Positions 20,561 through 41,773 are shown, numbered from the stretch's first letter. The stretch is DNA of 64,000 nt from a virus (IMGVR_UViG_3300011339_000564:14318-78317), one strand, 5' to 3'. Numbers and translations are program-made. Notes: a model not told the origin generated them from the letters alone.

Positions 20561-20566
20561 GCACAG

Positions 20567-26935: not shown

Positions 26936-26936
26936 T

Positions 26937-27146
26937 ATGCCATATAAAAGCCGTATTAAAACATTAGAAGAATCACATAGATTAGTAGAAAATCAACTTT
27001 TTCAATTAGAAAAATCAAATGGTGATCCTGAAAAAATTAAAAAGTTGAGAGAGGCTAAGGAAAAGTATTTCACTGAATTACGTGCAATGAATCGGGCTCA
27101 ATGGGATCATGACCATGAAACTGTAGATTTGAACGATGACCGATGA
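26937..27146 (+). CDS. hypothetical small protein (69 aa)
   Basis: ORF with SD and overlap. Confidence 0.45.
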   Translation: MPYKSRIKTLEESHRLVENQLFQLEKSNGDPEKIKKLREAKEKYFTELRAMNRAQWDHDHETVDLNDDR

Positions 27147-27711
27147 TATTAAATTAATTCCCAATATACTAAAACCAGAGGTAGAGTGGGATATTAATAA
27201 ACGAGTTATTGTTATTGATAACGCAATTAGCCCGGATATGTGTGATAGTATTATTAATTTTGCAACTGATAGAGTAGCAAAAGGAGTAAACAAATATCCA
27301 CATGTATTTGGTATTAGTTTTCATTCATGTCTACTTCAGTTAGAACATGAAGTTCATCAATTGTTGCAACCAATATGGCAACAATCAATTAATCAATTGG
27401 GATTTGATATTGATTTCGTTGAACCATATGAAGTTAAAAAGTATACTTCTAAAGATTTCTTTGGTAAACACGTAGATAATTACTACAGTTTGACCAAAGA
27501 CATAGACAGAAAGATAACAATGAGTGTACAATTGACTGACAAATCAGAATATACTGGTGGTGAGCTATTAGTGTTAGGTAGAGACATGGGTGCTAAGTCT
27601 AAAGGTAGCGTCACTGTGTTTCCTAGCATTTTTTCACATGAAGTAAAACCCATTACTTTTGGTACACGATGGTCATTAATAAGTTGGGCTTGGGGCCCTT
27701 ATTGGAAATAA
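27136..27711 (+). CDS. 2OG-Fe(II) oxygenase-like protein
   Basis: HVDN (HxD) plus a distal SHEV...R (second His/Arg), spaced as in prolyl-hydroxylase-type dioxygenases. Confidence 0.5.
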   Translation: MTDDIKLIPNILKPEVEWDINKRVIVIDNAISPDMCDSIINFATDRVAKGVNKYPHVFGISFHSCLLQLEHEVHQLLQPIWQQSINQLGFDIDFVEPYEVKKYTSKDFFGKHVDNYYSLTKDIDRKITMSVQLTDKSEYTGGELLVLGRDMGAKSKGSVTVFPSIFSHEVKPITFGTRWSLISWAWGPYWK

Positions 27712-27712
27712 C

Positions 27713-28165
27713 ATGGAACAACATATTCAAGCAGAAACAGAAAAACGAGTACGCATTAAGCATCATGCAAAGCGTATGATTTTCGTAACATTTCAAAAAG
27801 AGGGTATTCATATGTACCCGGCGGCGGCAACAGATCCAGCACTCGCAACGGGTGATGAATATGATGTTCGCTTTTTAGGAACTCCACATCGTCACATCTT
27901 TCACTTTAACGTGGCGATTGAAGTATTTCACAACGACAGGGATATTGAATTCATTCAATTTAAACGCTGGTTAGAGAATCTCTATAAAGGCGGTACACTT
28001 GAATTGAATTACAAGAGTTGTGAAATGATTAGTGATGACCTCTATGAAGTTATTGCTACTCGCTATCCCGATCGTAACATTGAGATTACCGTCAGTGAAG
28101 ATGGTGAGAACGGTGCTACGATTTATTACAACACAATTAGACCTTATCTTTCAACCGCTATTTAA
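27713..28165 (+). CDS. hypothetical protein (150 aa)
   Basis: ORF. Confidence 0.5.
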   Translation: MEQHIQAETEKRVRIKHHAKRMIFVTFQKEGIHMYPAAATDPALATGDEYDVRFLGTPHRHIFHFNVAIEVFHNDRDIEFIQFKRWLENLYKGGTLELNYKSCEMISDDLYEVIATRYPDRNIEITVSEDGENGATIYYNTIRPYLSTAI

Positions 28166-28177
28166 AGGATTATCAAA

Positions 28178-28384
28178 ATGGCAAAACCAACATTTCAAAC
28201 TAACCCACGTGTTCATCAAATATTTGAGGACTTGGAAAAGTATCTTGAATTCTGTCAAGAGTATGGATATAAGTATAATGAGGCAGACCTCTATGACCAA
28301 CGCAGTTATGTGTTTCGTCAGTTTGCAAAATGCATGACAGGTAAGCCTGCAAAAAATCAATGGACAGAACACTCACGTCCATGA
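28178..28384 (+). CDS. hypothetical small protein (68 aa)
   Basis: AAGGA SD lies upstream. Confidence 0.4.
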   Translation: MAKPTFQTNPRVHQIFEDLEKYLEFCQEYGYKYNEADLYDQRSYVFRQFAKCMTGKPAKNQWTEHSRP

Positions 28385-29133
28385 AGATAGTATTAGTAAC
28401 TGGTGGATTTGATCCATTACACAGCGGTCATATTGAATATTTCAAAGCCGCAAAACAACTCGGTGTCAAGTTAGTTGTCGGGGTAAACAGTGATGCATGG
28501 TTGGCTCGTAAAAAGGGCCAACCTTTTATGCCTAGCATTGAGCGTATGTCAATAATTGAAAATTTAAAAATGGTAGATCATTGTGTTATCTTTAATGATG
28601 ATGATGGTTCTAGTATTGAAGCTATCAATAATGTAAAGATGATGTATCCTGATTCTGAAATCATCTTTGCTAATGGAGGGGATAGAACATCAGCCAACAT
28701 TCCAGAAATGATCTTTGATGATGTAGAATTTGTTTTTGGTGTAGGTGGCGAGAATAAAATGAACAGTAGTTCATGGATACTACGTGAATGGAAACAACCT
28801 AAAACATTGCGGCAATGGGGTTATTATCGTATACTACATGATGTGCCCGGGACTAAAGTAAAAGAACTAACAGTAGAATCTGGAAAGAGTTTGAGTTTAC
28901 AACGACACAAACATAGAGCAGAATACTGGCATGTATCAGAGGGAAGATGTGCAGTAGAACAAAGAATGCCTAATGGCTATCAACTACCTACTCTAGAATT
29001 AGATACACTAAGTCAAATAGTTATTCCTATGAATGATTGGCATAGGCTATACAATCCGTTTGATGTCCCATGTAGAATTATTGAAGTTCAATATGGTACT
29101 ATGTGCGAAGAAGAAGATATAGAACGCAAATGA
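28360..29133 (+). CDS. bifunctional-looking cytidylyltransferase-fold nucleotidyltransferase with a C-terminal cupin (PMI type II-like) domain
   Basis: VLVTGGFDPLHSGHIEYF (HxGH). C-terminal QRHKHRAEYWHVSEGRCAVE matches the cupin motif of mannose-6-P isomerase/GMP domains. Confidence 0.6.
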   Translation: MDRTLTSMKIVLVTGGFDPLHSGHIEYFKAAKQLGVKLVVGVNSDAWLARKKGQPFMPSIERMSIIENLKMVDHCVIFNDDDGSSIEAINNVKMMYPDSEIIFANGGDRTSANIPEMIFDDVEFVFGVGGENKMNSSSWILREWKQPKTLRQWGYYRILHDVPGTKVKELTVESGKSLSLQRHKHRAEYWHVSEGRCAVEQRMPNGYQLPTLELDTLSQIVIPMNDWHRLYNPFDVPCRIIEVQYGTMCEEEDIERK

Positions 29134-29858
29134 ATCGTGCTATCTGTGCCCCGTGCGGTGGTTTAATGAATCATGTCAGATGGTTAACATTAATGTCATC
29201 TGAATTTAAACTTCCTTTTAAAGGTAAGTTAGAATTTATGAAGGGTGTTTACGCTACCAACAGATCGCCATTTGTATGGTTAAAAAATGAATATTTTTAT
29301 AGGGAACGACCTTTTATAAAGGATTTGGTATTTGGAACTCATCACATTGAAGACTGCCTAACATTAGAAAGTCCTAGAAAAATTTTAATATTGGTTCCTT
29401 CCCCTGAATTAAGTTTCACCCATTATTTAAAGTTTAATCCATCATTGAATGGATTATTAAAACTACGAATCAATCAGCCCTACCTTACAGTAGAAGATAT
29501 AAAAAATCTGTATTTGCTTGGCATTTCGGATCACAATTACCGTAATAAGTTGCATGATACCTCAACTAATGATATAATTACTTCAAATATTGATAAATTA
29601 TATACTAATAGAGAATTAGATGTGGACACGTATCGTACTATAACTGATTTTTTTGAGATATCAAATGAATACAACTTAGCAAATGAAGTTCACAATATGT
29701 GGTTTGATTTACAAGAACATGGTAAAAAATTAATGCTAACACTCTCAGAAAACGCAAAAGATGTAGAGAATTATTGGAGATTGAATCATATTGAAGCAAT
29801 CAACCAATCTGATTATAATATTGCACTTAAACTTATTAAAGAGACATACGGAGAATAA
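29130..29858 (+). CDS. hypothetical protein (242 aa from the ATG at 29130)
   Basis: ORF. Internal ATG chosen to give an ATGA overlap with the previous stop. Confidence 0.45.
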   Translation: MNRAICAPCGGLMNHVRWLTLMSSEFKLPFKGKLEFMKGVYATNRSPFVWLKNEYFYRERPFIKDLVFGTHHIEDCLTLESPRKILILVPSPELSFTHYLKFNPSLNGLLKLRINQPYLTVEDIKNLYLLGISDHNYRNKLHDTSTNDIITSNIDKLYTNRELDVDTYRTITDFFEISNEYNLANEVHNMWFDLQEHGKKLMLTLSENAKDVENYWRLNHIEAINQSDYNIALKLIKETYGE

Positions 29859-31058
29859 ATGAAAACATTATATTATATGGGACTAGAACCCTACAAAGCA
29901 CGTTACACTCTACAGTTACAAGAGTGGAATGAACGGGTCTTTAAACAACGTGGTATTAACTATGTCATTGTACCCGGTGAAACACTAACTAATGACCAAG
30001 CTATTGTAACTGGTCAAGTACTAGATGCACATGGTCGTACATACTTTGGTATGAGTCAACTTATGAATCTAGTTAAGATGATGAAGCAAGGTGAAGTAGG
30101 TGCAGGTGATATCGTATACTTTGAAGATATGTTTCAGCCGGGCATTGAGTCATTGCCATACATTATGAAACAGATTCCGATCACAAGTCGTCCTAAGATT
30201 TTTGTTCGCTGTTTAGCACAAAGTATTGACCCAGATGACTTTGTTCATGTCTGGGGTATGAGTGAATTCATGGGTCACTATGAGAAGATGGTTGATTCGT
30301 TTGTTGATGGTGTGCTTGCTAGTAACGAAGAAATGGTAATGCACATGAAGATTGCGGGTTGGAAAGCTCCTATCTATAATATATCAGGTCTAGCATTTGG
30401 TAAAGATGAAGTTCGTAGTCGTATTAATAATAATATTAAACCCTTTGATGAACGTAAAATGCGTATTGCTTTTAGTGCAAGATGGGACCAAGAGAAACAA
30501 CCTGACTTCTACATGGATGTGATTGAAGAATTCTTTAATCGGTATGGTGAGAAGGATCGTCACGGTATATATCGTGGTGTAGAATTTTGTGTATTCAGTG
30601 GTAGCAAATTAAAAAGCAATAACGATAGTTATATGAAACGCACACACGACTTTCAAGGTCGTGGATTGTTGACAGTTTATGAAGACTTGGACAAGAATGC
30701 ATATTATGAATTATTAAATGATACCAGAGTATTGTTTAATTGTGCATTACAAGATTGGGTAAGTAATACAGTTAGTGAAGCAGATAGTTTGGGTTGTAAT
30801 GTGTTGTATCCAGCATATCGCAGTTTTCCAGAAACGTTTGCAAACGACTATACAAGAATGTATGCGCCCTGGTCAGTTGAAGATGCGGCAATAAAGTTGT
30901 ATAATATGTTACATCAGCCACATATAAATCAAGGAAAGATTAGTGATTGGACTGATGGTACTATTGATAGAATCTGTGATATCTTAGAAGGTAAGGGACA
31001 ACAATGGTTGCGTATGGACAAAGATTATCGCAAACATACTAGAGAAAATAAATACTAA
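29859..31058 (+). CDS. hypothetical protein (399 aa)
   Basis: Long ORF. Confidence 0.5.
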   Translation: MKTLYYMGLEPYKARYTLQLQEWNERVFKQRGINYVIVPGETLTNDQAIVTGQVLDAHGRTYFGMSQLMNLVKMMKQGEVGAGDIVYFEDMFQPGIESLPYIMKQIPITSRPKIFVRCLAQSIDPDDFVHVWGMSEFMGHYEKMVDSFVDGVLASNEEMVMHMKIAGWKAPIYNISGLAFGKDEVRSRINNNIKPFDERKMRIAFSARWDQEKQPDFYMDVIEEFFNRYGEKDRHGIYRGVEFCVFSGSKLKSNNDSYMKRTHDFQGRGLLTVYEDLDKNAYYELLNDTRVLFNCALQDWVSNTVSEADSLGCNVLYPAYRSFPETFANDYTRMYAPWSVEDAAIKLYNMLHQPHINQGKISDWTDGTIDRICDILEGKGQQWLRMDKDYRKHTRENKY

Positions 31059-31070
31059 AAGGAGAAAATT

Positions 31071-31760
31071 ATGTTTGAAACAACTTATACAGATAATGTA
31101 AATTACCGTTCTGCTAGCGAAATTAACTCAGCAATGGGCCGTGTTTATGGTCACATGAGTCTAGCTGTCATTGTATCAATGTTAGTTAGCTATTTTGTAG
31201 GCTCTAGTCCAGAGTTACTACAATTCTTTTTTACAGGTGTATTGAAATGGATTGTGATCTTTGCCCCATTAGCGGCAATATTTGGTGTTGCTATGGTCCT
31301 AGGTAACAACCCTAGTAAGGGCGTAGCACAACTATGTTTACATGGATTTGCCGCACTAATGGGATTAAGTTTTGCTACAATCTTTGCTGTATTCAACATG
31401 GGTAGTATTGTAAGCTCATTTATGGGAGCAGCCATATTGTTTGGCGTTATGAGTGGCTATGGTTATTTTACTAAACAAAGTTTAGACAGTCTTGGCAAGT
31501 TTATGTTTGTTGGATTGATTGCAATAGTTATTGCCAGCATTGTCAATATCTTTATCGGCAGTACCGTAATGCAAATGGTTATCAGTGCGTTGGCTATCAT
31601 TATCTTTTTAGGATTGACTGCTTACGACACACAAAAGATTCGTGAAGAATTAAGTCTAGAAACCAGTGATAGTGCAGAAGTACGCGGTGCATTAACATTG
31701 TACATGGACTTCATTAATTTGTTTATTAACCTCTTACAACTATTTGGTGATAGGAAATAA
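31071..31760 (+). CDS. Bax-inhibitor-1/YccA-family integral membrane protein
   Basis: Seven predicted TM segments, about 229 aa. N-terminal AMGRVYGHMSLAVIVSML resembles the BI-1/YccA signature. Confidence 0.5.
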   Translation: MFETTYTDNVNYRSASEINSAMGRVYGHMSLAVIVSMLVSYFVGSSPELLQFFFTGVLKWIVIFAPLAAIFGVAMVLGNNPSKGVAQLCLHGFAALMGLSFATIFAVFNMGSIVSSFMGAAILFGVMSGYGYFTKQSLDSLGKFMFVGLIAIVIASIVNIFIGSTVMQMVISALAIIIFLGLTAYDTQKIREELSLETSDSAEVRGALTLYMDFINLFINLLQLFGDRK

Positions 31761-31762
31761 TC

Positions 31763-32179
31763 ATGGCAACATGGATATTAAAAACACTGCACAAAAAGAG
31801 TGCATATGAAAGACAGCATTGGTACAAAGATGGTAAAGAAATCATCCGTGAAGAAGGTTACCGTTGGGGCACATTTTACTGTGAAAGTGATGAGAAACCT
31901 GATATTGACCTAACTAATGATGATGGTTATGAAATTGGTCAAGATGAGTATGAGTGGGAGCTTGATAGCCTCGATGACGGTTGTTGGGCTGATTGGGAAT
32001 TCCCCGATGACATGAGTGAAGAAGAACAAGAAGAAATTCAAAATGCTTGGGATGAAAATTATTTTGAAGGCATGGAAGAATTAGGTTGGAGTTGCGATGA
32101 TACAGATTATATCTTGCAAGGTCCGTTAGAATTATCAGATGAAGATGGTAATGTAGTAGGTTCTGGTGATACAGAATAA
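31763..32179 (+). CDS. acidic small protein, 'WEF' paralog family member 1
   Basis: CWADWEFPDDMSEEEQEEIQ. Paralogous to 32575-33060 and 63727-end. Confidence 0.5.
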   Translation: MATWILKTLHKKSAYERQHWYKDGKEIIREEGYRWGTFYCESDEKPDIDLTNDDGYEIGQDEYEWELDSLDDGCWADWEFPDDMSEEEQEEIQNAWDENYFEGMEELGWSCDDTDYILQGPLELSDEDGNVVGSGDTE

Positions 32180-32202
32180 GTTCATTTCAAATAGGAGAAA
32201 AC

Positions 32203-32397
32203 ATGAGCGCACAAAATGATATCGAAACAAGTTTGGCAGCATACAACGCTGAAAACGATAAGTTTAACAAAGGAAATGCAGCCGCAGGTACACGTGCCCG
32301 CAAAGCATTAGCAGAACTAGCTAAAGCAGTTAAGGCTCGCCGTAACGAAATTACAGCAGAAAAAGCCGCACGTGCTGAAGCAAAGGTAAAGGCTTAA
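32203..32397 (+). CDS. Lys/Ala-rich histone H1-like DNA-binding protein (64 aa)
   Basis: AAGTRARKALAELAKAVKARRNEITAEKAARAEAKVKA resembles bacterial H1-like nucleoid proteins. SD AGGAGAAAA lies upstream. Confidence 0.45.
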   Translation: MSAQNDIETSLAAYNAENDKFNKGNAAAGTRARKALAELAKAVKARRNEITAEKAARAEAKVKA

Positions 32398-32574
32398 TAT
32401 GACCTGCAGAGGCTATGATAGCAGGGCAATTAAATTGCCAAAAGAGATAAAATGCAGAGCGGCAACTATTTTAGATAATCATCAGCGAGGTGAATTTATA
32501 CGTAGTTGGGTAGCAATATATAAAGAGGCCGCACATTCAAGGGGCTCCAATAAAAAACATTCTAAGGATTAATA

Positions 32575-33060
32575 ATGGCTAATGTCTACTGTATTAAACC
32601 ACTAGAGAAGAAAAGTATTAGCTGGCGGGTAGAAATGTACCGTGAGAATAGTGACGGATCTTTCAGTTGGTTTAATATGGAAGAATTATATCGTTGGGGT
32701 CAGGGTTTTATTGAAGAAGACCTTGATTGCAACCTGCCTTGGAAAGGTTCTAACTCTGCACATTGCAAAACAGATGCAGGTTGGGGATGTGAGTTTGAAG
32801 ATTCTATCAGTATTGACTGGGAATTTTCAGACGATATCACAGAATTGGAACAACAAGAAATTAAAGAATCATACTATGATGGTGGCGCGGCTTGGTTGTT
32901 TGACGGTGAACATGATTGGCAAACTGAAGATGATTATGTCATAGTCTTGGCGCCCTTTAGTGTTGACTATGCTAGTGACAACGGTGATATAATCACTGAG
33001 AACGTAGAATTAAAAGAACGTCCACCATTAGACCCAAATGCGGCATGGCCTTTTTCTTAA
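32575..33060 (+). CDS. acidic small protein, 'WEF' paralog family member 2
   Basis: SIDWEFSDDITELEQQEIKE. Confidence 0.5.
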   Translation: MANVYCIKPLEKKSISWRVEMYRENSDGSFSWFNMEELYRWGQGFIEEDLDCNLPWKGSNSAHCKTDAGWGCEFEDSISIDWEFSDDITELEQQEIKESYYDGGAAWLFDGEHDWQTEDDYVIVLAPFSVDYASDNGDIITENVELKERPPLDPNAAWPFS

Positions 33061-33144
33061 ACAAACACACACTAAGATAAATAAAGATGTAACACAAAGG
33101 TTACAAAATTTCAAAACAAAAACCATCACAAAGGAAGGTTATCT

Positions 33145-33825
33145 ATGAGTTATAATAAAACAAAAACAGATCCAGAGTTGGGTCAACGAGTACACGAACA
33201 TCTAGTTAAGATGGGTGTTGAAACTCCCACTAATCCAAACAACTATGACCGTAAAGAAAAGATAGATCATATTGAAGCGCATTTTACACACATTATGCGT
33301 ATCTTGGGTCTTGACTTAACAGACGATAGTTTGATTGAAACCCCTAAGCGTGTTGCCAAGATGTATGTCAACGAAATCTTTTGGGGACTTGACTATGACG
33401 CATTCCCTAAATGTACAACAGTTGACAACAAGATGCAATACAACGAAATGGTTGTAGAGCGTAATGTTAACGTTCAATCTAACTGCGAACATCATTTTGT
33501 AGTCATCGATGGACTAGCTACTGTAGCTTATGTCCCTAAACAAAAAGTTCTAGGGCTTAGTAAGATAAACCGTATCGTAGAATATTTTAGCAAAAGGCCT
33601 CAAATCCAAGAGAGGTTAACAGAGCAAATTTTTCACACCTTACAGTTCATCCTTGAAACAGAAGATGTTGCAGTTATGATTGATGCACAACACTATTGTG
33701 TAAAATCACGTGGTGTAGAAGATACGGGATCTAGTACTGTTACTTGTCGTTTAGGTGGCGGTTTCAAATCAGATCCTGCGGCAAGACAAGAGTTTTTACA
33801 GATTGCTAACAAAGGTTGCAAATGA
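33145..33825 (+). CDS. folE: GTP cyclohydrolase I (FolE)
   Basis: NCEHHFVVI (CEHH zinc site) and overall FolE-like length; SD AAGGAAGG. Confidence 0.85.
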   Translation: MSYNKTKTDPELGQRVHEHLVKMGVETPTNPNNYDRKEKIDHIEAHFTHIMRILGLDLTDDSLIETPKRVAKMYVNEIFWGLDYDAFPKCTTVDNKMQYNEMVVERNVNVQSNCEHHFVVIDGLATVAYVPKQKVLGLSKINRIVEYFSKRPQIQERLTEQIFHTLQFILETEDVAVMIDAQHYCVKSRGVEDTGSSTVTCRLGGGFKSDPAARQEFLQIANKGCK

Positions 33826-33953
33826 TTATTACAATATTAGTTACAATAGCAGTAATAATAGCTATTGTTATAATGATTGCTACGATGCCAAATGCTAGTA
33901 GATGTAACGGAGACTGCAATCAAGGTCGTAACTGTACTTGTAGGGAGCAATAA
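33822..33953 (+). CDS. tiny hydrophobic peptide (43 aa) with a Cys-rich tail (CNGDCNQGRNCTC); speculative
   Basis: ATGA overlap with the folE stop. The TAA overlaps the next ATG (33953). One TM helix. Confidence 0.3.
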   Translation: MIITILVTIAVIIAIVIMIATMPNASRCNGDCNQGRNCTCREQ

Positions 33954-34171
33954 TGGCACTGATATATAAAGAAGTAGAAGTTGATATTGATCTGAGCGAT
34001 TTTGATACTGACGAATTAGTTGAAGAATTGGAAAACCGTGGCTCAGGTGTTATGGACTACGATGACGGCAAGGAAGTACTACAGTCGATTTACGAAAAAC
34101 GTAGACTTGGACAAGACTATCAGCAAGAACTAGACCAATTAATTTGGTTAGGATTAGGGAGAGTTGTATGA
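33953..34171 (+). CDS. acidic hypothetical protein (72 aa)
   Basis: ORF. Confidence 0.45.
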
Positions 34172-34362
34172 TGAAATTTAAATTAGGTGACATGGTTAAA
34201 AAAGTGTCTGGTTCACAATGGCATGGAAAAGTAGTTGGTACATACTCAACTGAGTTAACGCCTGAAGGATATGCAGTTGAGAGTCATACAGAAAAAGGTT
34301 CTGTACAAATATACCCTGCAAAGGCTCTTGAGTTATGGGAGTTGAATAATGGGATTTCGTAA
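34168..34362 (+). CDS. hypothetical small protein (64 aa)
   Basis: The ATG at 34168 overlaps the previous stop, with AGGGAGAG upstream. Confidence 0.4.
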
Positions 34363-34585
34363 ACAAATGGACTACAATGCAGTACATCATCAAATCTATA
34401 TGAGTGGTGTAGAATTACATAGTAATTACAATGATGGTTACAATCAGTTTGAAATCAAAAAAGATTTACATCGTATCAAGTGGTTGTTAGATGAGATTAT
34501 GGCTGACAGCCCTACATTTGCAGGGGAAGACGAATTCTTAAAAGAACATGAACAAACTAAGATGTGGAGAACTCTTTCAAAATGA
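34349..34585 (+). CDS. hypothetical protein (78 aa)
   Basis: ORF. Confidence 0.45.
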
Positions 34586-35055
34586 TTTTCAATCACATTA
34601 AAAAACTCAAACAAGATGGAAAGAAGATAGGTATTACTTTTAGTACATTCGACCTACTTCACGCAGGTCATATTGCTATGTTAAGTGAAGCAAAAAATCA
34701 TTGTGATTATCTTATTTGTGGATTACAAACTGACCCCACGATTGATCGACCTGAAACAAAGAATAAACCCATTCAAAGTATCGTAGAACGACAGATTCAA
34801 CTTGCGGCTTGCCGCTATGTCGATGAAGTTGTTGTTTATCAAACTGAACAGGACCTTATTGACTTGTTACTTATTCTACCACTAGATGTTCGCATTTTGG
34901 GTGTAGAGTATGCAGATAAAGACTTTACCGGAAGATATGAAGGTAGTGAGCGTGGCATTGAAATTGTATTCAATGGTCGTGACCACAGTTTCAGCAGTAG
35001 TAGTTTACGAAAACGGGTAGCTGATGCCCAGATTATTAACGTTCTTAATAAATAA
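34582..35055 (+). CDS. cytidylyltransferase (TagD/glycerol-3-phosphate cytidylyltransferase-like)
   Basis: IGITFSTFDLLHAGHIAMLSEAK closely matches the TagD-type GTFDLLHxGH motif. About 158 aa. Confidence 0.7.
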   Translation: MIFNHIKKLKQDGKKIGITFSTFDLLHAGHIAMLSEAKNHCDYLICGLQTDPTIDRPETKNKPIQSIVERQIQLAACRYVDEVVVYQTEQDLIDLLLILPLDVRILGVEYADKDFTGRYEGSERGIEIVFNGRDHSFSSSSLRKRVADAQIINVLNK

Positions 35056-35084
35056 CTATAGCGGTCTTTGGACATCATCCCGCT

Positions 35085-35112
35085 TTACAAATTCTGCTGC
35101 CTATGCTATAAT
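35085..35112 (+). promoter_or_regulatory. sigma70-like promoter TTTACA-16-TATAAT upstream of queD
   Basis: Hexamers found; AGGAGAAA SD and the ATG at 35130 follow. Confidence 0.45.
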
Positions 35113-35129
35113 CAACATAGGAGAAATTC

Positions 35130-35612
35130 ATGGCAAACAAAAAATTCTTTTCAACAAAGACATACAGACAAATAGGTCCTGTCGCTTATCGTCAATGGCG
35201 TGCTGACAGTCATTGTAACTTAATTCATGGCTATGCTATGAGTTTTCACTTTGAGTTTGAGGCTGATACGTTAGACGCACGTAACTGGGTAACTGACTTC
35301 GGTGGATTACGACCTCTCAAAGATAAACTAGAAGAATGGTTTGACCATACATTACTAGTTGCACAAGATGACCCAATGCGTGAACATCTATTAGAACTAG
35401 GTCGTTTAAAGCTAGCTAAAATTACAGAAGTAGAACGTACTGGGTGTGAAGGTATTTCTGACTTTTTATATGAATACATTAACACAATTTTTTTGCCTAA
35501 CTGCGGTAGTGAAGAAGCTAAACGTGTATGGTGCTGTAGAGTAGAAGTCCGCGAGACTGATAGTAACATGGCAGGACGTAGTGGTCATAGGGAAGATAGA
35601 GAGTTTGAATAA
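35130..35612 (+). CDS. queD: 6-carboxy-5,6,7,8-tetrahydropterin synthase (QueD)
   Basis: SHCNLIHGYAMSF (the Cx3HGH zinc/catalytic motif of QueD/PTPS). About 160 aa. Confidence 0.7.
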   Translation: MANKKFFSTKTYRQIGPVAYRQWRADSHCNLIHGYAMSFHFEFEADTLDARNWVTDFGGLRPLKDKLEEWFDHTLLVAQDDPMREHLLELGRLKLAKITEVERTGCEGISDFLYEYINTIFLPNCGSEEAKRVWCCRVEVRETDSNMAGRSGHREDREFE

Positions 35613-36235
35613 TGTTAGAAACAATTTGCGATACATTAGTTGAAGCATATAAACGCAACTGGATTACCAGTCGTGATGGCAATGTAAGTATTCGTCATCA
35701 TGATCGGGATCATTTTTACATCACACCCAGTGGTGTGCGTAAGCAGACAATGCAACCGGATCAGTTTAAGAAGATTCGTATTGTTGGTAGTATGTTATGG
35801 GAAGAGCAACCATACACTGATATCAGTGCTAATCTTAAACCGTCAGGTGAGCTACCACTACACCTCGGACTACAGCGAAAAATGGGACAGCACAATAATG
35901 ATGTTAGAGTAGTAGTACATTTACATCCCACATACTGTGTTGCCGCTATGCACCGCGGCATTGAGTTGAGTAGTCTGGCTAATGACTTTCCTGAACTCAG
36001 TCGCTATACTAGCGTGGCACCCAATGTGGGTGATGTGCCTCCTATTAGCCAGGAACTTGCAGACCGCTGTCATGAAAATTTGGGACTAGATAAGAATGGT
36101 ACTATTGCTTATGACATTGTAGGTATCAAAGGTCACGGTGTGGTCGCTATAGATACTAGCCCATGGAGGGCTTTTGAACATATTGAACGATTAGAACATA
36201 TTTGTCAAATCGTATTAGCATCAGGGAAATATTAA
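35612..36235 (+). CDS. class II aldolase/adducin-domain-like protein
   Basis: SRDGNVSIR...FYITPSG resembles the fuculose-phosphate aldolase N-terminal signature (GNxSxR...TPSG). Confidence 0.5.
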   Translation: MLETICDTLVEAYKRNWITSRDGNVSIRHHDRDHFYITPSGVRKQTMQPDQFKKIRIVGSMLWEEQPYTDISANLKPSGELPLHLGLQRKMGQHNNDVRVVVHLHPTYCVAAMHRGIELSSLANDFPELSRYTSVAPNVGDVPPISQELADRCHENLGLDKNGTIAYDIVGIKGHGVVAIDTSPWRAFEHIERLEHICQIVLASGKY

Positions 36236-36236
36236 A

Positions 36237-36650
36237 ATGTTAGACTGTATAATTATAGGTGATAGCATTGCAGTTGGTACAGCTATGGCTCGTCCAGAGT
36301 GTGTAAGTTATTCAAAAGGCGGCTGGAACAGTTGGCAATGGAACAAGGATTACTTAGCCAAAGCCTCTGCTCAACCTGCTCAAACTATAATCATTAGTCT
36401 TGGAGCCAACGACCACAAGGGTGTTAAGACTGAGCTTGAGTTACGTAAAATGCGAGAAGCAGTTAAGGGCCAGCGTGTGTTTTGGATCGATCCAGGTCAA
36501 GACCGTAAACCTATTCCACACGATGCAATTATTCGCATTGCTAAAGAATATGGTGATACAGTATTGCCTAGGCCAAAGAATCATATGAGTGCTGACGGAG
36601 TACATCCAACTGGTCGAGGTTATAAGATTTTAGGAGAGATGGCAAAATGA
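36237..36650 (+). CDS. short SGNH/GDSL-like hydrolase
   Basis: IIIGDSIAVG (GDS block I). SLGANDH (GxND block III). DGVHP (DxxH block V). Confidence 0.5.
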   Translation: MLDCIIIGDSIAVGTAMARPECVSYSKGGWNSWQWNKDYLAKASAQPAQTIIISLGANDHKGVKTELELRKMREAVKGQRVFWIDPGQDRKPIPHDAIIRIAKEYGDTVLPRPKNHMSADGVHPTGRGYKILGEMAK

Positions 36651-37282
36651 GTTATATTGTAGGATCATTACCTCCTATTAAGTGTTGGATAAAACGTGAA
36701 TTTCTTTACAACTTTGAAAAAGGTCACGGAGAATTAGAACCTGCCATATGGGTAAGTCTTAAAGCATTACGTGGACAAGTGTTTCGTATTGAATCATTAT
36801 TACCCAATTACGGAGCACTCTACGATAAACTGCCCATTCATGCCTATGTATGGCAAGACAACTACACAGGCAATCTACCTATAGATACTTTACAACTCTG
36901 GGACTGCATGGGTTATCGCTTTACTATCATTGAAAAAATAGGTTTACGTAATCTAGGTGTTAAGTTCTTGGGCAAAGATAAAGAATGGCATCACGGAACT
37001 TATTTATTTACAGTAGATTTTTGTGCTGATGGAATGGATGTAGATACAGGTTTTACTGAAGTAGCAGAAGAACACAAGTCGTTTAATTTTATTAGATTAG
37101 AAAATGGACAGTTTGCTTGTCAACCCAATAATCGATGTTTGTGGTACGACCAAAGTTTGATTTCAGGTACAGTGAAATTTCCAGACTTTAAAGCCGCACA
37201 GACCATATTTACAGTAGATGGTACTCGCAAGTGGAGTGCAGGAGATGATTGGTTTTATTCTATTGAGGAAAAAAATGAATAG
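36647..37282 (+). CDS. hypothetical protein (211 aa) inside the que module
   Basis: ORF with overlaps on both sides. Confidence 0.5.
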   Translation: MSYIVGSLPPIKCWIKREFLYNFEKGHGELEPAIWVSLKALRGQVFRIESLLPNYGALYDKLPIHAYVWQDNYTGNLPIDTLQLWDCMGYRFTIIEKIGLRNLGVKFLGKDKEWHHGTYLFTVDFCADGMDVDTGFTEVAEEHKSFNFIRLENGQFACQPNNRCLWYDQSLISGTVKFPDFKAAQTIFTVDGTRKWSAGDDWFYSIEEKNE

Positions 37283-37466
37283 TTTAGAAAAAATATGGGC
37301 TAGAGCAACTGGTCATTTAATGGGTAACACTGATGATGATAGACCCGATGTACCTATTCTTACTTTACGAGAAGCAAGAATTGCATTGTTCCTAAAAACT
37401 TTCTGGATTATACTACATGTGATAACATGTTGTTTCATCATAGCAAATACATTACGTCATTGGTAA
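37275..37466 (+). CDS. small membrane protein (63 aa from the internal ATG)
   Basis: Hydrophobic FWIILHVITCCFIIANTL. The ATG at 37275 overlaps the upstream stop. Confidence 0.35.
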   Translation: MNSLEKIWARATGHLMGNTDDDRPDVPILTLREARIALFLKTFWIILHVITCCFIIANTLRHW

Positions 37467-37469
37467 AAT

Positions 37470-37667
37470 ATGAACAAAAAAATTACAGAACTATGGGAAC
37501 AGGCCGCTCAACGAGATGACTTACTAGACGAAAAACGGTATGAGCATTTTGCTGAATTATTAATTAGAGATTGTGCAAAACAAGTTAATCATCTGGCTAA
37601 ACAAGGTGGCGGAACTTGGGGCGAAGTCATTCTAGAAAACTACAATATAAGTGTATATAAAAAATGA
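37470..37667 (+). CDS. member of the small 'FAELIVREC' paralog family (65 aa)
   Basis: HFAELLIRDCAKQV is shared with six other small ORFs in the window. Confidence 0.45.
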   Translation: MNKKITELWEQAAQRDDLLDEKRYEHFAELLIRDCAKQVNHLAKQGGGTWGEVILENYNISVYKK

Positions 37668-38512
37668 GTCATTTAAAAGTATCAGAATTATTTTACAGTA
37701 TCCAGGGAGAAGGTCGCTATATGGGAGTGCCAAGTATTTTCCTAAGAACATATGGATGCAATTTTACATGCGGTGGCTTCGGTATGCCTAAGGGAGAAAT
37801 GAGTAATGAGAGAGATGTTATCGCAATTAAAGCAGAAGATTATACAGATTATAAATCCTTACCACTTGTCAGTACTGGATGTGATAGTTACGCATCTTGG
37901 GACCCTCGCTTTAAACATCTTAGTCCTGTTATCTCTACCGATTCTATTGCTGACAGTATTATGGATATACTTCCTCACAAGCGTTGGATGGATGAACATC
38001 TTGTTATTACAGGTGGTGAACCTTTGCTTGGATGGCAAAGAGCGTATCCAGACTTACTTTCAAACGAGAAAATGAGAGCATTGAAAGAGATTACATTTGA
38101 AACTAATGGCACACAAGAACTAAGTAAAGACCTTACTAACTATCTTCATCAATGGAAGATCAGCCGTGAAAATAACGCACTTACATTCAGTGTGAGTCCT
38201 AAACTTAGTATCAGCGGTGAGAAGTGGGAAGAAGCAATATGTCCACAAGTTGTTCGTCAATATGAAAGTGTTGGCTTTGTATATCTTAAATTTGTTATTG
38301 CTACTAAAGAAGATGCGATTGAGGCAGATAAAGCAGTTAAAGAATTTCGTACAGCTGGATTCAGAGGTCCAATATACTTCATGCCATGCGGTGGTGTAGA
38401 AAGTATCTATAATTTAAATGCTAGAAATGTTGCTATTGAAGCAATGAATCGTGGCTATCGCTATAGTGATAGATTACAGGTGCCTCTATTTAAAAATGAA
38501 TGGGGGACATAA
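37664..38512 (+). CDS. queE: QueE-like 7-carboxy-7-deazaguanine synthase (radical SAM) with atypical cysteine spacing
   Basis: YSIQGEGRYMGVPSIFLRTYGCNFTC matches the QueE N-terminus (QGEG...GCNxxC). The third cluster Cys is displaced by a long insertion. Confidence 0.65.
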   Translation: MSHLKVSELFYSIQGEGRYMGVPSIFLRTYGCNFTCGGFGMPKGEMSNERDVIAIKAEDYTDYKSLPLVSTGCDSYASWDPRFKHLSPVISTDSIADSIMDILPHKRWMDEHLVITGGEPLLGWQRAYPDLLSNEKMRALKEITFETNGTQELSKDLTNYLHQWKISRENNALTFSVSPKLSISGEKWEEAICPQVVRQYESVGFVYLKFVIATKEDAIEADKAVKEFRTAGFRGPIYFMPCGGVESIYNLNARNVAIEAMNRGYRYSDRLQVPLFKNEWGT

Positions 38513-38715
38513 TGACAGAAACAAAAAAACGCACAGTGGTAAGGATGCTTACCTATAGATTGACAGCATGGTTATTCACAATCTTTTGGACTTATCTGTT
38601 TACAGGTAATCTAGGTAACTCAGCCGGCTTTGCTACTGCATTACATATATTATTAAGTATAGACTATTACATTCACGAACGCATTTGGTTGAGAATCAAA
38701 TGGGGTAAGGAATAA
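38500..38715 (+). CDS. small membrane protein (71 aa)
   Basis: Two hydrophobic helices. Confidence 0.4.
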   Translation: MGDIMTETKKRTVVRMLTYRLTAWLFTIFWTYLFTGNLGNSAGFATALHILLSIDYYIHERIWLRIKWGKE

Positions 38716-38716
38716 T

Positions 38717-38941
38717 ATGCCATTAGATCAAGTCCAATCATATGATTACTTTTATGACAAATTGATAGGTACTGAACTTAAGTTTACTTGGCTACCCCAA
38801 ACTTGTGACATATCAGGTAAGCGTATTTGGTTAAAGTATGGGTATAGGATGACTAGGATGATTACTGGACCGGGCACACCTGTCTTTGAGTATAGATGGC
38901 ACGATAAGAATACCCATATTATATGGAAACTAAAAAGGTGA
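38717..38941 (+). CDS. hypothetical protein (74 aa)
   Basis: ORF. Confidence 0.4.
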   Translation: MPLDQVQSYDYFYDKLIGTELKFTWLPQTCDISGKRIWLKYGYRMTRMITGPGTPVFEYRWHDKNTHIIWKLKR

Positions 38942-38945
38942 ATAT

Positions 38946-39125
38946 ATGTATGAATTAAGATATCTTGTCCGAAACGGTTGGGATGGACCTGAACAAGTGT
39001 TACAATATAGAACTCAACATGAAGTAACAGACTATAGTGGCACAGATCCTAAAACAGGTGGATTCATTAGAAAAATAGAATGGACTGAATGGAAGTATGT
39101 CCCCACCGTAGATGAAACAAAATGA
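38946..39125 (+). CDS. hypothetical small protein (59 aa; below the ORF-track threshold)
   Basis: ORF with an ATGA overlap to the next gene (39122). Confidence 0.35.
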   Translation: MYELRYLVRNGWDGPEQVLQYRTQHEVTDYSGTDPKTGGFIRKIEWTEWKYVPTVDETK

Positions 39126-40471
39126 AATTATACGATAAACGAATTGCTTTTTTGATTAGTGACCAACATTTTATACCGCATGGTGGTATAGGTAGTTTTG
39201 CTAAAGGCTTTACTGAGATGTGTGGTCGTATCGGGTGGAAGGTTGATATTATATTAGACAAAGCACCTACTAATTTATTCAGTGATTTAATTATTAGTCT
39301 AGGTGCTAACATTGTTTACCCTGATGAACCACTACGATACAGTGACCATACTGCTACGTTTGCATTTAGCGATACTATCAACTTTGAAAAGATTATCAAC
39401 TTCCGTAAAGCAATATTAAAAGCATTTGAAACAAATGTATACGACATGATTGTGTGTAATACACAAGAGGCAATGACTGCTAGTTATGCCATGACGGTTA
39501 ACAAGTATATACCTGTTGTATTCTATACTCATTTGCACAGTATGATTTTTCGTGAAAGTCAAGGTAGTGATGTATTTTTAGACAGCTATCACAATTTCTA
39601 TAACAAACATATGGAGTTTACTGATATCATTATAGGCACACAAAGTCAAAAGAACATTGACGAACTAACTAAGTTTGGTGCAACTAACTGTCAGTTATTG
39701 CGTATGCCAATGAGTGAACGTGGTCTATTAGAACGATACAATGGATCTAAGAAGGGTGTACTATTCATTGGACGATGGGAAGAAGGTAAGAACCCTGAAG
39801 CATATATTCGTGTAATGAAAGAATGTAAATTACCATGTAAGGTAATGACAAATAGTAACGGTGCAAAAAAGTTTGAGAAGGCATTCAGTGACGCAGGTAT
39901 TACTGATTATGAAATCAAAGCCGGTATTACTGGACAAGAGAAAGTAGATTTTGTTCGTGGTGCTAATGTATTCTTTATGCCCAGCCTTCGTGAAAACTAT
40001 CCATTTGCATTTTTAGAATGTCTTGGTCATATGCCTTGTGTTGTGCTTGATAATCAAGATTGGTCAGACAACTTTGAGCGAGAATACTATCATCAAGTTT
40101 CAATTGGTTCAGCAGCCGACATGATTAAAACATTGTATGGCACAAATCAATTATCTTCAGTATTAGACTATGTGAAACAATTAGATGATGAGGTAGCTCA
40201 AGGTTGGATTACATTCTTAGATAATTTTGCAGGCAAGCGTAGCAACACAAATGCCGCAAAGATTAATACATATGATACAGTTAAGTATAGTGATTATATC
40301 AAGGATTTAAATCGTACACATTTAGCACGTGAGGACTTTGAAAGCGTACTCGCAAACAAATATAAGTTTTTAAATGTCTGCTACACAGATAGTGACACTT
40401 ACCTAAGCAAAGACCCAACATATAAACCAGTCGAGGAAGAAACAGCATTAAGTCTGTTTGAAGGATTATGA
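39122..40471 (+). CDS. GT4-family (GT-B) glycosyltransferase
   Basis: FIGRWEEGKNPEAYI and FFMPSLRENYPFAFLECLGHMPCVV match the C-terminal motif of group-1 glycosyltransferases (E..G...EA...G.P). Confidence 0.6.
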   Translation: MKLYDKRIAFLISDQHFIPHGGIGSFAKGFTEMCGRIGWKVDIILDKAPTNLFSDLIISLGANIVYPDEPLRYSDHTATFAFSDTINFEKIINFRKAILKAFETNVYDMIVCNTQEAMTASYAMTVNKYIPVVFYTHLHSMIFRESQGSDVFLDSYHNFYNKHMEFTDIIIGTQSQKNIDELTKFGATNCQLLRMPMSERGLLERYNGSKKGVLFIGRWEEGKNPEAYIRVMKECKLPCKVMTNSNGAKKFEKAFSDAGITDYEIKAGITGQEKVDFVRGANVFFMPSLRENYPFAFLECLGHMPCVVLDNQDWSDNFEREYYHQVSIGSAADMIKTLYGTNQLSSVLDYVKQLDDEVAQGWITFLDNFAGKRSNTNAAKINTYDTVKYSDYIKDLNRTHLAREDFESVLANKYKFLNVCYTDSDTYLSKDPTYKPVEEETALSLFEGL

Positions 40472-41298
40472 AAAAAGTTTTAATTACAGGTAACTCAGGT
40501 TACATTGGCAGTCATCTAAGTAAGATGTTAATGGATACAATGAAATATGAAGTTCATGGATTAGATATCCGTGACCCGCAATATGCATTGAATAGATTTT
40601 ATCGTCAAGATATCAATAGACAATTTTCATTAGATGAAGAATTTGATGCAGTCATTCACTTAGCCGCATTAGTTAATGTAGGTGAAAGTGAACAGATACC
40701 CATTCAATATTATATCACTAACTTAAATGGCACAATGAATGTCATTAACAAAGTAAAGACTAAAAACTTTATATTTGCAAGTACGGGTGCCGCAGTTGGT
40801 TGCGAAAGTGCTTATGGTATCAGTAAACGTGCCGCAGAAGATGTAGTCAAAGAATACTGCACACATCACAATAAAAAAGATTATACTATCTTTAGATTTT
40901 ATAATGTGATTGGTACTACCGTTGTTCCACCTACAAATCCAGATGGATTAATGTATAACTTAATGAAAGCACGTGAAACAGGTGAGTTTACTATCTTCGG
41001 TAATGACTATGACGTTAGTGATGACGGTACATGTGTGCGTGATTATGTACATGTGAATGAAATTTGTGACTCATTAGCACAGGCTATCGAAAAGCCTAGT
41101 AACCAAATTGAATCATTGGGTCACGGAGTGGGATGGACAGTTAAAGAGATTGTCGATGAGTTTCAAAAAGTCAATCACGTTGACTTTGAAGTAAAATACG
41201 GCCCAAGAAGAAAGGGTGATCTTGCTAGTTCTGTACTAGAAGATGTTTCACCCTATATGCGTAATCTATATACTATGGATGAGTTGCTTAAGGTTTAA
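40468..41298 (+). CDS. NAD-dependent sugar epimerase/dehydratase (SDR superfamily, GalE-like)
   Basis: ITGNSGYIGSHL (GxxGxxG Rossmann motif). YGISK (YxxxK catalytic dyad). Confidence 0.8.
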   Translation: MKKVLITGNSGYIGSHLSKMLMDTMKYEVHGLDIRDPQYALNRFYRQDINRQFSLDEEFDAVIHLAALVNVGESEQIPIQYYITNLNGTMNVINKVKTKNFIFASTGAAVGCESAYGISKRAAEDVVKEYCTHHNKKDYTIFRFYNVIGTTVVPPTNPDGLMYNLMKARETGEFTIFGNDYDVSDDGTCVRDYVHVNEICDSLAQAIEKPSNQIESLGHGVGWTVKEIVDEFQKVNHVDFEVKYGPRRKGDLASSVLEDVSPYMRNLYTMDELLKV

Positions 41299-41299
41299 T

Positions 41300-41773
41300 T
41301 TATAGACCAATCTTGGGTGGATACATTGGGCCAGACTTTATTCGTTCACCACCGTCAAAGTAACTAATTTCTACTGGTAATTCTTTCCAGCCTAATCTAT
41401 GTGCAGCCATGATACGATGATTACCTTCGTTTACCCAGGCACTGCCATCATAGGCCACATTGATAAAAGGTTTGTATTCTTCACTAGAGTGTGAATGTAA
41501 TGGTAGCTTGCCGGTGTCCTTCATTATTTTCATAATTGCAATAAGATCACCTTGACGCACATTTTGTTGTTCGTTTCGCATACCGGGTATTTGTCTTAGT
41601 AAGTTAACAGGAATTTCAACTTTTCTGACAGTAGCAGTTGTCTTTCCCATGTAGGGCAAACCATTACGATCAGGACTTTTTTGCTTGGCATACGCAATAG
41701 CATCGTTTAGCCATTCCTCATTAGGCACATCAACACTAAGTGTTCCTTCAGTTATAAATTCTTTTGCTCTCAC
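41300..41773 (-). CDS. hypothetical protein (157 aa)
   Basis: ORF on the minus strand. Its stop abuts the plus-strand epimerase stop within 1 nt. Confidence 0.5.
   Translation of the reverse strand: MRAKEFITEGTLSVDVPNEEWLNDAIAYAKQKSPDRNGLPYMGKTTATVRKVEIPVNLLRQIPGMRNEQQNVRQGDLIAIMKIMKDTGKLPLHSHSSEEYKPFINVAYDGSAWVNEGNHRIMAAHRLGWKELPVEISYFDGGERIKSGPMYPPKIGL

Follow-up and report, generated by a model that had tools for sequence, protein, structure and literature searches.

Enzymes of the DpdA family exchange guanine in DNA for a deazaguanine base, the DpdA3 type being able to replace all guanines, and the presence of DpdA has meant DNA modification in every phage tested so far (PMC10516641). 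Cellulophaga phage phiST has been described as having a system in which DpdA is combined with DpdL, and the same type was predicted for Acidovorax phage ACP17; when DpdL and DpdA of the latter were expressed in E. coli, no 2'-deoxy-7-deazaguanine (dDG) was formed, and the authors proposed that further enzymes were missing (PMC10516641). In this study we analysed a 64,000-nucleotide stretch of viral DNA (IMGVR_UViG_3300011339_000564:14318-78317, hereafter the window), in which an island of approximately 16 kb (positions 25382-41298) combines the genes for DpdA, DpdL, FolE, QueD and QueE with two glycosyltransferases (GTs) and a set of sugar-nucleotide genes. We propose that the genes of this island glycosylate a 7-deazaguanine-type base in phage DNA, a reading whose chances of being right or wrong we hold to be evenly balanced.

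To our knowledge, all sugar decorations of DNA described to date are carried by pyrimidines (glucosyl- and arabinosyl-5-hydroxymethylcytosine, base J and glycosylated 5-hydroxycytosine), and all known deazaguanine bases of DNA carry small groups only. If the proposal is correct, the island would specify the first sugar-bearing purine-type base, and with it a new class of DNA base. A precedent comes from phage clusters encoding 5mYOX enzymes or C5-methyltransferases, in which sequential GTs, or a GT that depends strictly on the adjoining epimerase, build mono- or disaccharides on 5-hydroxymethylcytosine (5hmC) in DNA (bioRxiv 10.1101/2023.12.21.572611). Within the library covered, our literature searches returned no report of glycosylated deazaguanine or of a link between GTs and deazaguanine DNA modification, and no follow-up on DpdL beyond the 2023 paper.

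The window belongs to the genome of a large uncultured T4-like phage with a GC content of about 37%, and it also encodes DnaJ, a ClpB-like chaperone, UvdE, a ligase and SOD. This phage has no close cultured relative, since megablast of positions 28000-42000 against 50,697 phage records returned zero matches. Relatives were collected by scanning IMG/VR with the family of one of the two GTs, GT399 (the other being GT449; Table 1), which yielded 576 of them. The best 80 loci, with 73-97% GT399 identity, were fetched to +/-10 kb around GT399 and compared gene by gene, counts over 63, 39 or 22 loci referring to the loci that reach far enough for the gene in question; single loci are designated by L and a number. 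An earlier note on this DNA had assembled five genes into one dispersed sugar-nucleotide pathway, interleaved with deazaguanine genes, and had suggested either decorated DNA bases or modified host surface polymers as its outcome. All five open reading frames (ORFs) were recovered in our analysis at the coordinates given there; GT399, DpdA and DpdL had been overlooked.

Table 1. Features of the island and its surroundings (positions in the window; fractions are numbers of related loci)
Feature	Positions	Strand	Basis or distribution
Candidate GT-A (A197-like) protein, not of the island	6539-7435	+	Weak phmmer match to STIV A197, E 0.021
PolB	21475-24183		
DpdA-family DNA-guanine transglycosylase, divergent (PA5oct type), 517 aa	25382-26935	+	GDSGGFQ motif, family profile
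2-Oxoglutarate (2OG)-Fe(II) oxygenase, accessory insert	27136-27711	+	PF13640 E 1.9e-12; 3/63
DpdL, QueD paralog, proposed 7-carboxy-7-deazaguanine decarboxylase	27713-28165	+	LxxxHRHxF motif
Conserved 68-aa ORF between DpdL and GT399	28178-28384	+	62/63, position constant
Nucleotidyltransferase (RfaE-II/TagD superfamily) and type-II PMI-like cupin fusion, accessory	28360-29133	+	PF01467 and PF01050; 19/63
251-aa ORF, accessory	29103-29858	+	4/63
GT399, GT4-like GT-B glycosyltransferase, 399 aa	29859-31058	+	Predicted fold, motifs, DpdA/DpdL partner
GTP cyclohydrolase I (FolE)	33145-33825	+	PF01227 E 1.9e-61; 35/39, between GT399 and QueE
Stand-alone nucleotidyltransferase (RfaE-II/ECT/TagD-like), 157-163 aa	34582-35055	+	30/39, between GT399 and QueE
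QueD-type T-fold enzyme (CPH4 synthase)	35130-35612	+	PF01242 E 3e-15; 32/39
Class II aldolase-family protein, insert	35612-36235	+	PF00596 E 4e-30; 6/39
GDSL-like hydrolase, insert	36237-36650	+	PF13472 just below cutoff; 0 relatives
phrog_3704 protein, insert	36647-37282	+	4/39
QueE-type radical SAM enzyme (7-carboxy-7-deazaguanine synthase)	37664-38512	+	Homology; weak PF04055 and PF13353 matches
Two conserved small ORFs (74 and 59 aa) before GT449	38717-39125	+	34 and 20 of 80, always between QueE and GT449
GT449, GT4-type GT-B glycosyltransferase	39122-40471	+	Predicted fold, Ex7E motif
GalE-like NAD-dependent nucleotide-sugar epimerase, 276 aa	40468-41298	+	PF01370 E 5e-32; 22/22

By motifs and family profiles, the window is predicted to encode a complete deazaguanine pathway of the DpdA/DpdL type. 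The putative DpdA carries GDSGGFQ, which corresponds to the DSGGxQ hallmark of TGT-type enzymes. Its family profile aligned over 197 columns with the DpdA3-like proteins of Synechococcus phage BUCT-ZZ01, ACP17, Xanthomonas phage BUDD, L089 and L090 (hhalign probability 96.8%, E 2.9e-10), the DpdA hidden Markov model (HMM) matched family members at E 1e-9 to 4.5e-12, and an HMM of the window-type protein recovered an ORF of Pseudomonas jumbo phage PA5oct (L096:6248-7879) at E 4.9e-113. The island protein is thus of the PA5oct type, its similarity to the proteins of ACP17, BUDD and BUCT-ZZ01 being remote. Its assignment was made from these family-level profile and HMM searches because, with the 517-aa sequence by itself, hhalign gave no significant alignment to three DpdA3-like proteins (probability 1.5%). 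Likewise, tblastn of the window with the BUCT-ZZ01 DpdA protein found no DpdA, and a Pfam scan of the ORF, TGT (PF01702) included, gave no match, the TGT model being reported to miss further DpdA3-like proteins as well. PHROG scans of the other large unassigned ORFs of the window were negative.

The sequence LGTPHRHIF in the putative DpdL fits the signature LxxxHRHxF, defined for DpdL in PMC10516641, which replaces CxxxHGH of QueD, and the protein matched ACP17 DpdL at E 2.2e-43 (phmmer). The QueD of the window is 71% identical to that of ACP17, and its QueE is 47% identical to the annotated QueE of BUCT-ZZ01; QueC is missing from the island. The QueD proteins of DpdL-type clusters (window, L001, L007 and L090) have CxxxHGY in place of the canonical zinc motif CxxxHGH.

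Phmmer searches with GT399 or GT449 against all PDB sequences returned nothing at E <= 1, and their fold was therefore settled by structure prediction. GT399 has no Pfam match, more distant homologs of the BUDD branch carrying PF00534, and a profile of four GT399 sequences gave marginal matches to GT-B enzymes only (E 0.04). GT449 scored 20.1 bits against Glycos_transf_1 (PF00534), below the cutoff of 26.4, and some of its homologs at 81-90% identity carry a precomputed match to this family. The AlphaFold model of GT399 (pLDDT 79.9, pTM 0.81) retrieved GlgM, sucrose-phosphate synthase (SPS), BshA, TarM, MshA and PimA from the PDB with Foldseek at E 3e-9 to 1e-7. That of GT449 (pLDDT 82.5, pTM 0.84) matched GT4-type GT-B enzymes (BshA, MshA, PimA) at E 1e-11 to 1e-9, its top 50 PDB matches being all GT-B enzymes and mostly of family GT4. 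Residues R208, E212, K213 and E307 are invariant in the GT399 family, which has a D299-x7-E307 motif and, at the N-terminus, an invariant ExP..RYT motif where a glycine-rich loop is usual. In GT449 the corresponding motif is E291-x7-E299, and E291, E299, E220 and K223 do not vary even in homologs with as little as 23% identity.

By predicted fold and by motifs, both proteins are GT4-like, as the earlier note had proposed for GT449. They share with the CAZy GT4 enzymes BshA, MshA, PimA, GlgM and TarM the GT-B fold, the R/K diphosphate contacts and the (E/D)x7E motif, and differ from the solved enzymes of this family in having no significant sequence match to any solved GT. Both keep the nucleotide-sugar-binding residues and are predicted to be catalytically intact, with a retaining transfer from a nucleotide sugar as the putative reaction. 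The GT399 family comprises 627 clusters (50% identity) at E <= 1e-30; a pattern scan of 185,579 bacterial and archaeal genomes did not detect it, and it appears to be confined to phages.

The order of the genes is conserved among the related loci. Along the best 80 a PP-loop ATPase is followed by PolB, two unknown genes, DpdA, an optional 2OG oxygenase, DpdL, the 68-aa ORF, an optional nucleotidyltransferase (NT)-cupin fusion and GT399; further downstream come an Hc1-like protein, FolE, the stand-alone NT, QueD, QueE, the two small ORFs, GT449 and the epimerase, with other genes intervening between GT399 and the Hc1-like protein, FolE and NT, and QueD and QueE. DpdA and DpdL are present in all 63 loci. 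In 20 of 22 loci QueE is followed by GT449, whose identity ranges from 39 to 88% and which keeps its place even at 39%; the epimerase comes directly after it in all 20. This conservation across relatives implies that the interleaving of sugar genes with FolE, QueD and QueE, already recognized in the earlier note, is not due to chance. The genes of the island thus constitute a conserved module with accessory inserts. All of them are co-oriented with start/stop overlaps, the start codon of the epimerase overlapping the stop of GT449.

The association of the GTs with deazaguanine genes is not limited to these close relatives. Homologs of GT399 are almost always located beside DpdA and/or DpdL, in local orders that differ from phage to phage. 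BUCT-ZZ01, whose GT399 homolog is 63% identical to that of the window, has QueE, a phosphoribosyltransferase, QueD, FolE, a GT449 homolog (44% identity), DpdA, DpdL and GT399. The order is QueD, FolE, an unassigned gene, DpdA3, GT399, DpdL and QueE in ACP17, and FolE, a PAPS-reductase-like gene, two unassigned genes, GT399, DpdA, DpdL and QueE in BUDD. In PA5oct, PolB is followed after a gap by DpdA, a GT399 homolog (E 1.5e-49) and DpdL, with QueE further on; the three adjoining genes (222985-226130, L096) are all annotated as hypothetical. The DNA of PA5oct shows a pattern of restriction-enzyme resistance at G-containing sites that points to a modified G of undefined structure (PMC12191111). 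Among seven distant metagenomic contigs, five have DpdA adjoining or near the GT (L089, L090, L097, L098 and L099), one has only a DpdL fusion next to the GT399 homolog (L093) and one has neither DpdA nor DpdL within 8 kb (L094).

The pairing of two GTs with one deazaguanine cluster also recurs: in L098 the GT399 homolog is directly followed by a GT449 homolog (HMM E 2e-30) and then by QueE, and in L089, L093 and L097 a GT of a third family adjoins the DpdL fusion. All full-length GT449 homologs of cultured phages (BUCT-ZZ01, BUDD and X1) occur in genomes that also encode GT399 and DpdA; a partial homolog in an Erwinia phage has only hypothetical neighbours. In the jumbo-phage contigs the gene before the GT always encodes a conserved protein of 140 aa, with stop and start overlapping, and DpdL forms a fusion with a further conserved domain, that of the '215-aa family' in BUDD (L089 5426-6238, L093 5322-6119, L097 6728-7552 and L098 6685-7485).

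The genes likely to supply the sugar are more variable than the GTs. The NT-cupin fusion, as the earlier note had described it, has both domains above cutoff: PF01467 (E 1.5e-13, with an HSGH motif) and a C-terminal PF01050 (E 4e-21, 75.7 bits vs a cutoff of 23.6), the cupin part retaining the metal-binding motifs LQRHKHRAEYW...G and WHRLYN. Its best NCBIfam matches are rfaE_dom_II (79 bits, cutoff 181.5) and the C-terminal region of GMP_PMI, with TagD at 45 bits (cutoff 165); in L076 the cupin and the NT are separate genes. The stand-alone NT, whose ORF opens with a GTG at 34564, has PF01467 (E 1.8e-12) and an HAGH motif. It remains below cutoff for both rfaE_dom_II (HldE domain II, 81.5 bits vs 181.5) and TagD (58 bits vs 165), and its nearest solved relatives are ethanolamine-phosphate cytidylyltransferase (E 1.7e-19) and TagD, the glycerol-3-phosphate cytidylyltransferase (E 3e-13). 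Both NTs pass the cutoff of TIGR00125 (51-53 bits vs 27.7). Since the curated models all fall short of their equivalog cutoffs, the name TagD-like given to the stand-alone gene is acceptable only as a superfamily-level call that assigns no substrate. The neighbourhoods of this NT's closest homologs in cultured phages (Acinetobacter Ab1-TPeters and Vibrio Va1) were uninformative, and the paper on S-B43 carboxymethylcytosine makes no mention of the TagD-like gene.

The best solved relatives of the epimerase are all UDP-glucose 4-epimerases (E 1e-33), and the motifs GNSGYIG (GxxGxxG), STG and YGISK (YxxxK) are present. The protein is short (276 vs ~330 aa) and obtained 157.9 bits with TIGR01179 against a GalE equivalog cutoff of 262.3; it is therefore GalE-like in family, relatives and motifs, as proposed before, without attaining the score or length of a GalE equivalog. 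The idea that an NT and this short-chain dehydrogenase/reductase (SDR) form a carboxylate-adenylating and -reducing pair acting on 7-carboxy-7-deazaguanine was set aside, the SDR scoring 158 bits as GalE and 32 as thioester reductase.

Relatives exchange their sugar-supply genes, some having richer cassettes, and keep the GT, DpdA and DpdL. In L076 the interval between GT399 and FolE holds a TylF-like methyltransferase, a 4,6-dehydratase-like SDR, a cupin, an NT, a PfkB kinase, a second SDR and a fragment of a DegT-type aminotransferase, and in L082 the sugar-supply region includes an IMPDH/GMP-reductase and an SDR. The combination of NT, PfkB kinase and SDR resembles a split HldE plus HldD, which makes an ADP-heptose-like donor possible; alternatively, the donor could be a UDP-hexose that the GalE-like enzyme epimerises. 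HldE domain II is indeed the best NCBIfam match of both NTs, and L076 adds the kinase and SDR epimerases of such a pathway. In contrast to the ADP-heptose pathway, the scores are far below equivalog level, the epimerase is closer to GalE than to HldD (158 vs 51 bits), a PMI-type cupin takes the place of the SIS isomerase, and neither GmhA nor GmhB was seen. Homologous NTs (30-52% identity) also occur in cassettes of the marine T4-like cyanophages S-SM2, P-TIM68, P-SSM2 and S-CAM1, often by an epimerase, a carbohydrate kinase or a cupin-type protein; these cassettes are usually read as related to lipopolysaccharide (LPS), and no deazaguanine genes have been reported as their neighbours.

The grouping of five genes into one pathway was too strong a claim. 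The NT-cupin fusion is an accessory, and the fifth gene, a putative GT with a DxD motif (6539-7435), is unrelated to the module: it lies 22 kb from the others, and its homologs are within 10 kb of them in none of the 80 related loci. Pfam and NCBIfam scans of this ORF gave no match. Its relation to GT-A enzymes comes from the weak phmmer match in Table 1, in which the DxD of FVDADIG aligns with FLDEDVV of STIV A197. The protein belongs to phrog_1574, with homologs in many T4-like cyano-, pelagi- and rhizobiophages. The adjoining gene (5204-6487) has a third NT domain of the PF01467 type in its first 90 residues (HAGH), followed by a long Gly/Ala-rich hydrophobic C-terminal region; it was not detected in the fetched loci.

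From these genes the following route can be drawn. FolE, QueD and QueE would convert GTP to 7-carboxy-7-deazaguanine, QueC being absent, and DpdL would decarboxylate this product. The divergent DpdA would then exchange guanine in the phage DNA for the deazaguanine base, and GT399 and GT449 would add one or two sugars to it, acting on the DNA or, prior to insertion, on the free base. The stand-alone NT and the GalE-like epimerase, with the NT-cupin fusion in some strains, would make or convert the nucleotide-activated donor, and the resulting glycosylated 7-deazaguanine may shield the DNA from host nucleases. Decorated DNA bases, as considered in the earlier note, are thus favoured by comparative genomics as a hypothesis, the GTs and sugar-nucleotide genes being fixed in the Dpd/Que island of this clade and the GT families recurring next to DpdA/DpdL in five or more further lineages of phages.

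The island resembles the phiST and ACP17 systems in its FolE, QueD and QueE, its lack of QueC, its DpdL motif, its divergent DpdA and a nearby PolB. Unlike phiST, which has none of them, it has two GT4-type GTs and nucleotide-sugar genes built in. ACP17 also has a GT399 homolog, between DpdA3 and DpdL, which was not discussed in PMC10516641. With the DNA-glycosylation systems of T4 and of the 5mYOX phages it shares GT-B GTs beside base-modifying enzymes, the translational coupling of a GT to a sugar epimerase, the presence of two GTs and variable sugar-supply genes; in those systems the acceptor is a hydroxymethyl pyrimidine, whereas the partner here is a purine-replacement pathway. Among the ORFs of the 64 kb window that were scanned there was no PF00303, PF02511, TET/JBP, 5mYOX or C5-methyltransferase, nor any enzyme for a hydroxymethylated base. 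As no acceptor-generating enzyme was found in the window, the island is not a member of the T4/5mYOX group, although it would work like one.

Several observations weigh against the glycosylation of deazaguanine. The acceptor atom is the weak point, as 7-deazaguanine has no obvious hydroxyl, and attachment at N2, at C7 or at a carboxyl-derived handle is for this reason speculative; the electron-rich C7 freed by the decarboxylation attributed to DpdL, or N2, are possible sites. Phage phiST makes plain dDG with DpdA3 and DpdL (PMC10516641) and has no GT of the GT399 or GT449 kind, and Rhizobium phage RHph_I1_18 has DpdL and no GT within 9 kb. The models of both GTs are closer to ordinary GT4 enzymes acting on small molecules or lipids, the T4 DNA glucosyltransferases being no better match (neither BGT nor AGT appears in the leading structure matches) and a cyanophage 'DNA alpha-GT' ranking only 23rd in a viral structure library; both proteins are acidic (pI 5.6-5.8). 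Close homologs of the stand-alone NT stand alone in phages with no visible deazaguanine genes, and NT/epimerase/kinase cassettes occur in cyanomyophages that lack such genes. The main exception to the linkage is the GT449 homolog of BUDD (within the stretch 174239-182458, L002), which is far from the deazaguanine cluster. Finally, all phages concerned are T4-like or jumbo phages, so that part of the synteny could be inherited rather than selected.

Different functions might explain the same set of genes. GT4 enzymes, GalE, RfaE-II/TagD-like NTs and PMI cupins are classic enzymes of envelope glycans, and the metagenome sources label the GTs as 'involved in cell wall biosynthesis'. The NTs, epimerase and GTs could accordingly alter LPS, capsule or teichoic-type polymers, with superinfection exclusion or receptor masking as the benefit, and simply be transcribed together with the deazaguanine genes, in an early or middle unit. 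Such a role is plausible for the similar cassettes of marine cyanomyophages, and the position of the BUDD GT449 homolog away from the deazaguanine genes agrees with it. For the island, this second outcome raised in the earlier note is less likely: no flippase, polymerase, polyprenyl-phosphate transferase, membrane-anchored, export, lipid-carrier or other envelope-assembly gene was seen there, the genes occupy a fixed position in the replication module rather than a variable island, and the GT399 family, not detected by the pattern scan of bacterial and archaeal genomes, accompanies DpdA/DpdL across hosts with differing envelopes (cyanobacteria, Pseudomonas, Xanthomonas and Acidovorax). We consider remodelling of the host surface unlikely. 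The decoration of capsid or tail proteins with phage-made nucleotide sugars is clearly less probable again: phage GTs are known to glycosylate capsids in actinophages, and the viral library places GTs from Arthrobacter, Gordonia and Rhizobium phages among the structural neighbours, but the genes are situated between those for DNA polymerase and DNA repair, at a distance from every structural module recognized in the window, and their persistent pairing with DpdA/DpdL would be left unexplained.

Other targets within nucleic acid and cofactor metabolism have to be weighed as well. Queuosine of eukaryotic tRNA is glycosylated by a GT4-family enzyme, and the pathways of deazapurine nucleosides (toyocamycin, tubercidin) include a phosphoribosyltransferase, as do the clusters of BUCT-ZZ01 and some relatives. 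Glycosylation of a free pterin or deazapurine, or of deazaguanine in tRNA, would further agree with the role of FolE and PTPS-family enzymes in pterin synthesis and with the small-molecule substrates of the nearest structural relatives of both GTs (BshA, MshA and LmbT), a tetrahydrobiopterin glucosyltransferase being among the structure matches of GT449 (rank 32, E 7e-9). We nevertheless find this rather improbable, given that neither GT is related in sequence to solved pterin GTs, that no gene of the sepiapterin reductase type was seen, and that QueE, DpdL and a DpdA-family transglycosylase are always present. DpdA indicates a nucleic acid as the target, it marks DNA modification in every phage tested (PMC10516641), and the DNA of PA5oct is itself modified at G (PMC12191111). 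Alternatively, the GTs could act in DNA on a hydroxymethyl- or hydroxy-pyrimidine made elsewhere, sharing with the deazaguanine genes a 'DNA modification slot' of T4-like genomes. The clusters of ACP17 and BUDD lie between DNA polymerase/UvsX and helicase, the region that in T4 harbours gene 42 and beta-gt, and GT-epimerase pairs are known for 5hmC (bioRxiv 10.1101/2023.12.21.572611). Here too the probability seems to us very low: among the scanned ORFs there is no thymidylate-synthase-like hydroxymethylase, TET/5mYOX enzyme or C5-methyltransferase, the sole 2OG oxygenase is of the PF13640 type and rare among relatives (Table 1), and the GTs of the jumbo-phage contigs have the DpdL fusion on one side and DpdA on the other.

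Glycosylation of deazaguanine, if it occurs in the island, may extend to cultured phages. We suggest, with slightly more doubt than conviction, that PA5oct, ACP17, BUDD/X1, BUCT-ZZ01 and their relatives carry glycosylated 7-deazaguanine, made by a phage-restricted GT4-like family together with DpdA and DpdL; a second GT and the strain-specific nucleotide-sugar cassettes would then diversify the glycan. The GT of ACP17, because it lies between DpdA and DpdL, is a candidate for the missing enzyme in the unsuccessful synthesis of dDG in E. coli, and the hypothesis may thereby explain that failure. Members of the GT399 family occur in abundant phages of freshwater and other environments and in Pseudomonas jumbo phages of relevance to therapy, whose modified G is chemically undefined. 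A sugar-bearing deazaguanine would have consequences for defence by restriction, CRISPR and glycosylases, for the sequencing of environmental phages and for the development of enzyme tools. The hypothesis can be tested directly on existing isolates, which cover four cultured phage groups.

Some further genes accompany the deazaguanine module. The window and at least 25 related loci have a TilS-like PP-loop ATPase (20549-21163, PF01171 E 1.8e-35) a short way upstream of PolB, and in the branch of BUDD and the jumbo phages the GT399/DpdL block always includes a PP-loop protein resembling PAPS reductase; a PP-loop protein could substitute for QueC by activating the carboxyl of 7-carboxy-7-deazaguanine. 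An HGPRT-like phosphoribosyltransferase (PF00156) is part of the cluster in BUCT-ZZ01 (L001 13069-13542), L037, L059, L081, L086 and L098 (13470-13910), where it may recycle the guanine released by DpdA or make a deazapurine nucleotide. A Lys/Ala-rich protein of 64 aa, similar to histone H1-like Hc1, is encoded between GT399 and FolE (32203-32397) in 29 of 39 loci, its L004 homolog matching PF07432, and may be a partner of the module that binds DNA. Inside the island there is also a membrane protein of the Bax inhibitor-1 family (31071-31760, PF01027 E 5e-53), which 8 of 39 relatives have at varying positions, and family scans of the 251-aa ORF gave no match. The distant GT449 homolog of BUDD has NadV, NMNAT and NAD synthase, that is, genes of NAD salvage, and a 2OG oxygenase as neighbours.

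Scans of the window for promoters and terminators gave no enrichment over shuffles. Two sites are close to the sigma-70 consensus: a perfect TTGACA-17-TATAAT at 24192-24220, in the gap before a 242-aa ORF that opens the DpdA block, and a near-perfect TTTACA-17-TATAAT with an upstream TG at 35084-35112, in the gap before QueD; their positions suggest two transcription units. Upstream of PolB the window encodes a 425-aa radical SAM protein (14238-15515), a class-I glutamine amidotransferase/peptidase C26 (17744-18319) and a TctC-family periplasmic binding protein (16758-17747), the last of which hints at a host of betaproteobacterial type.

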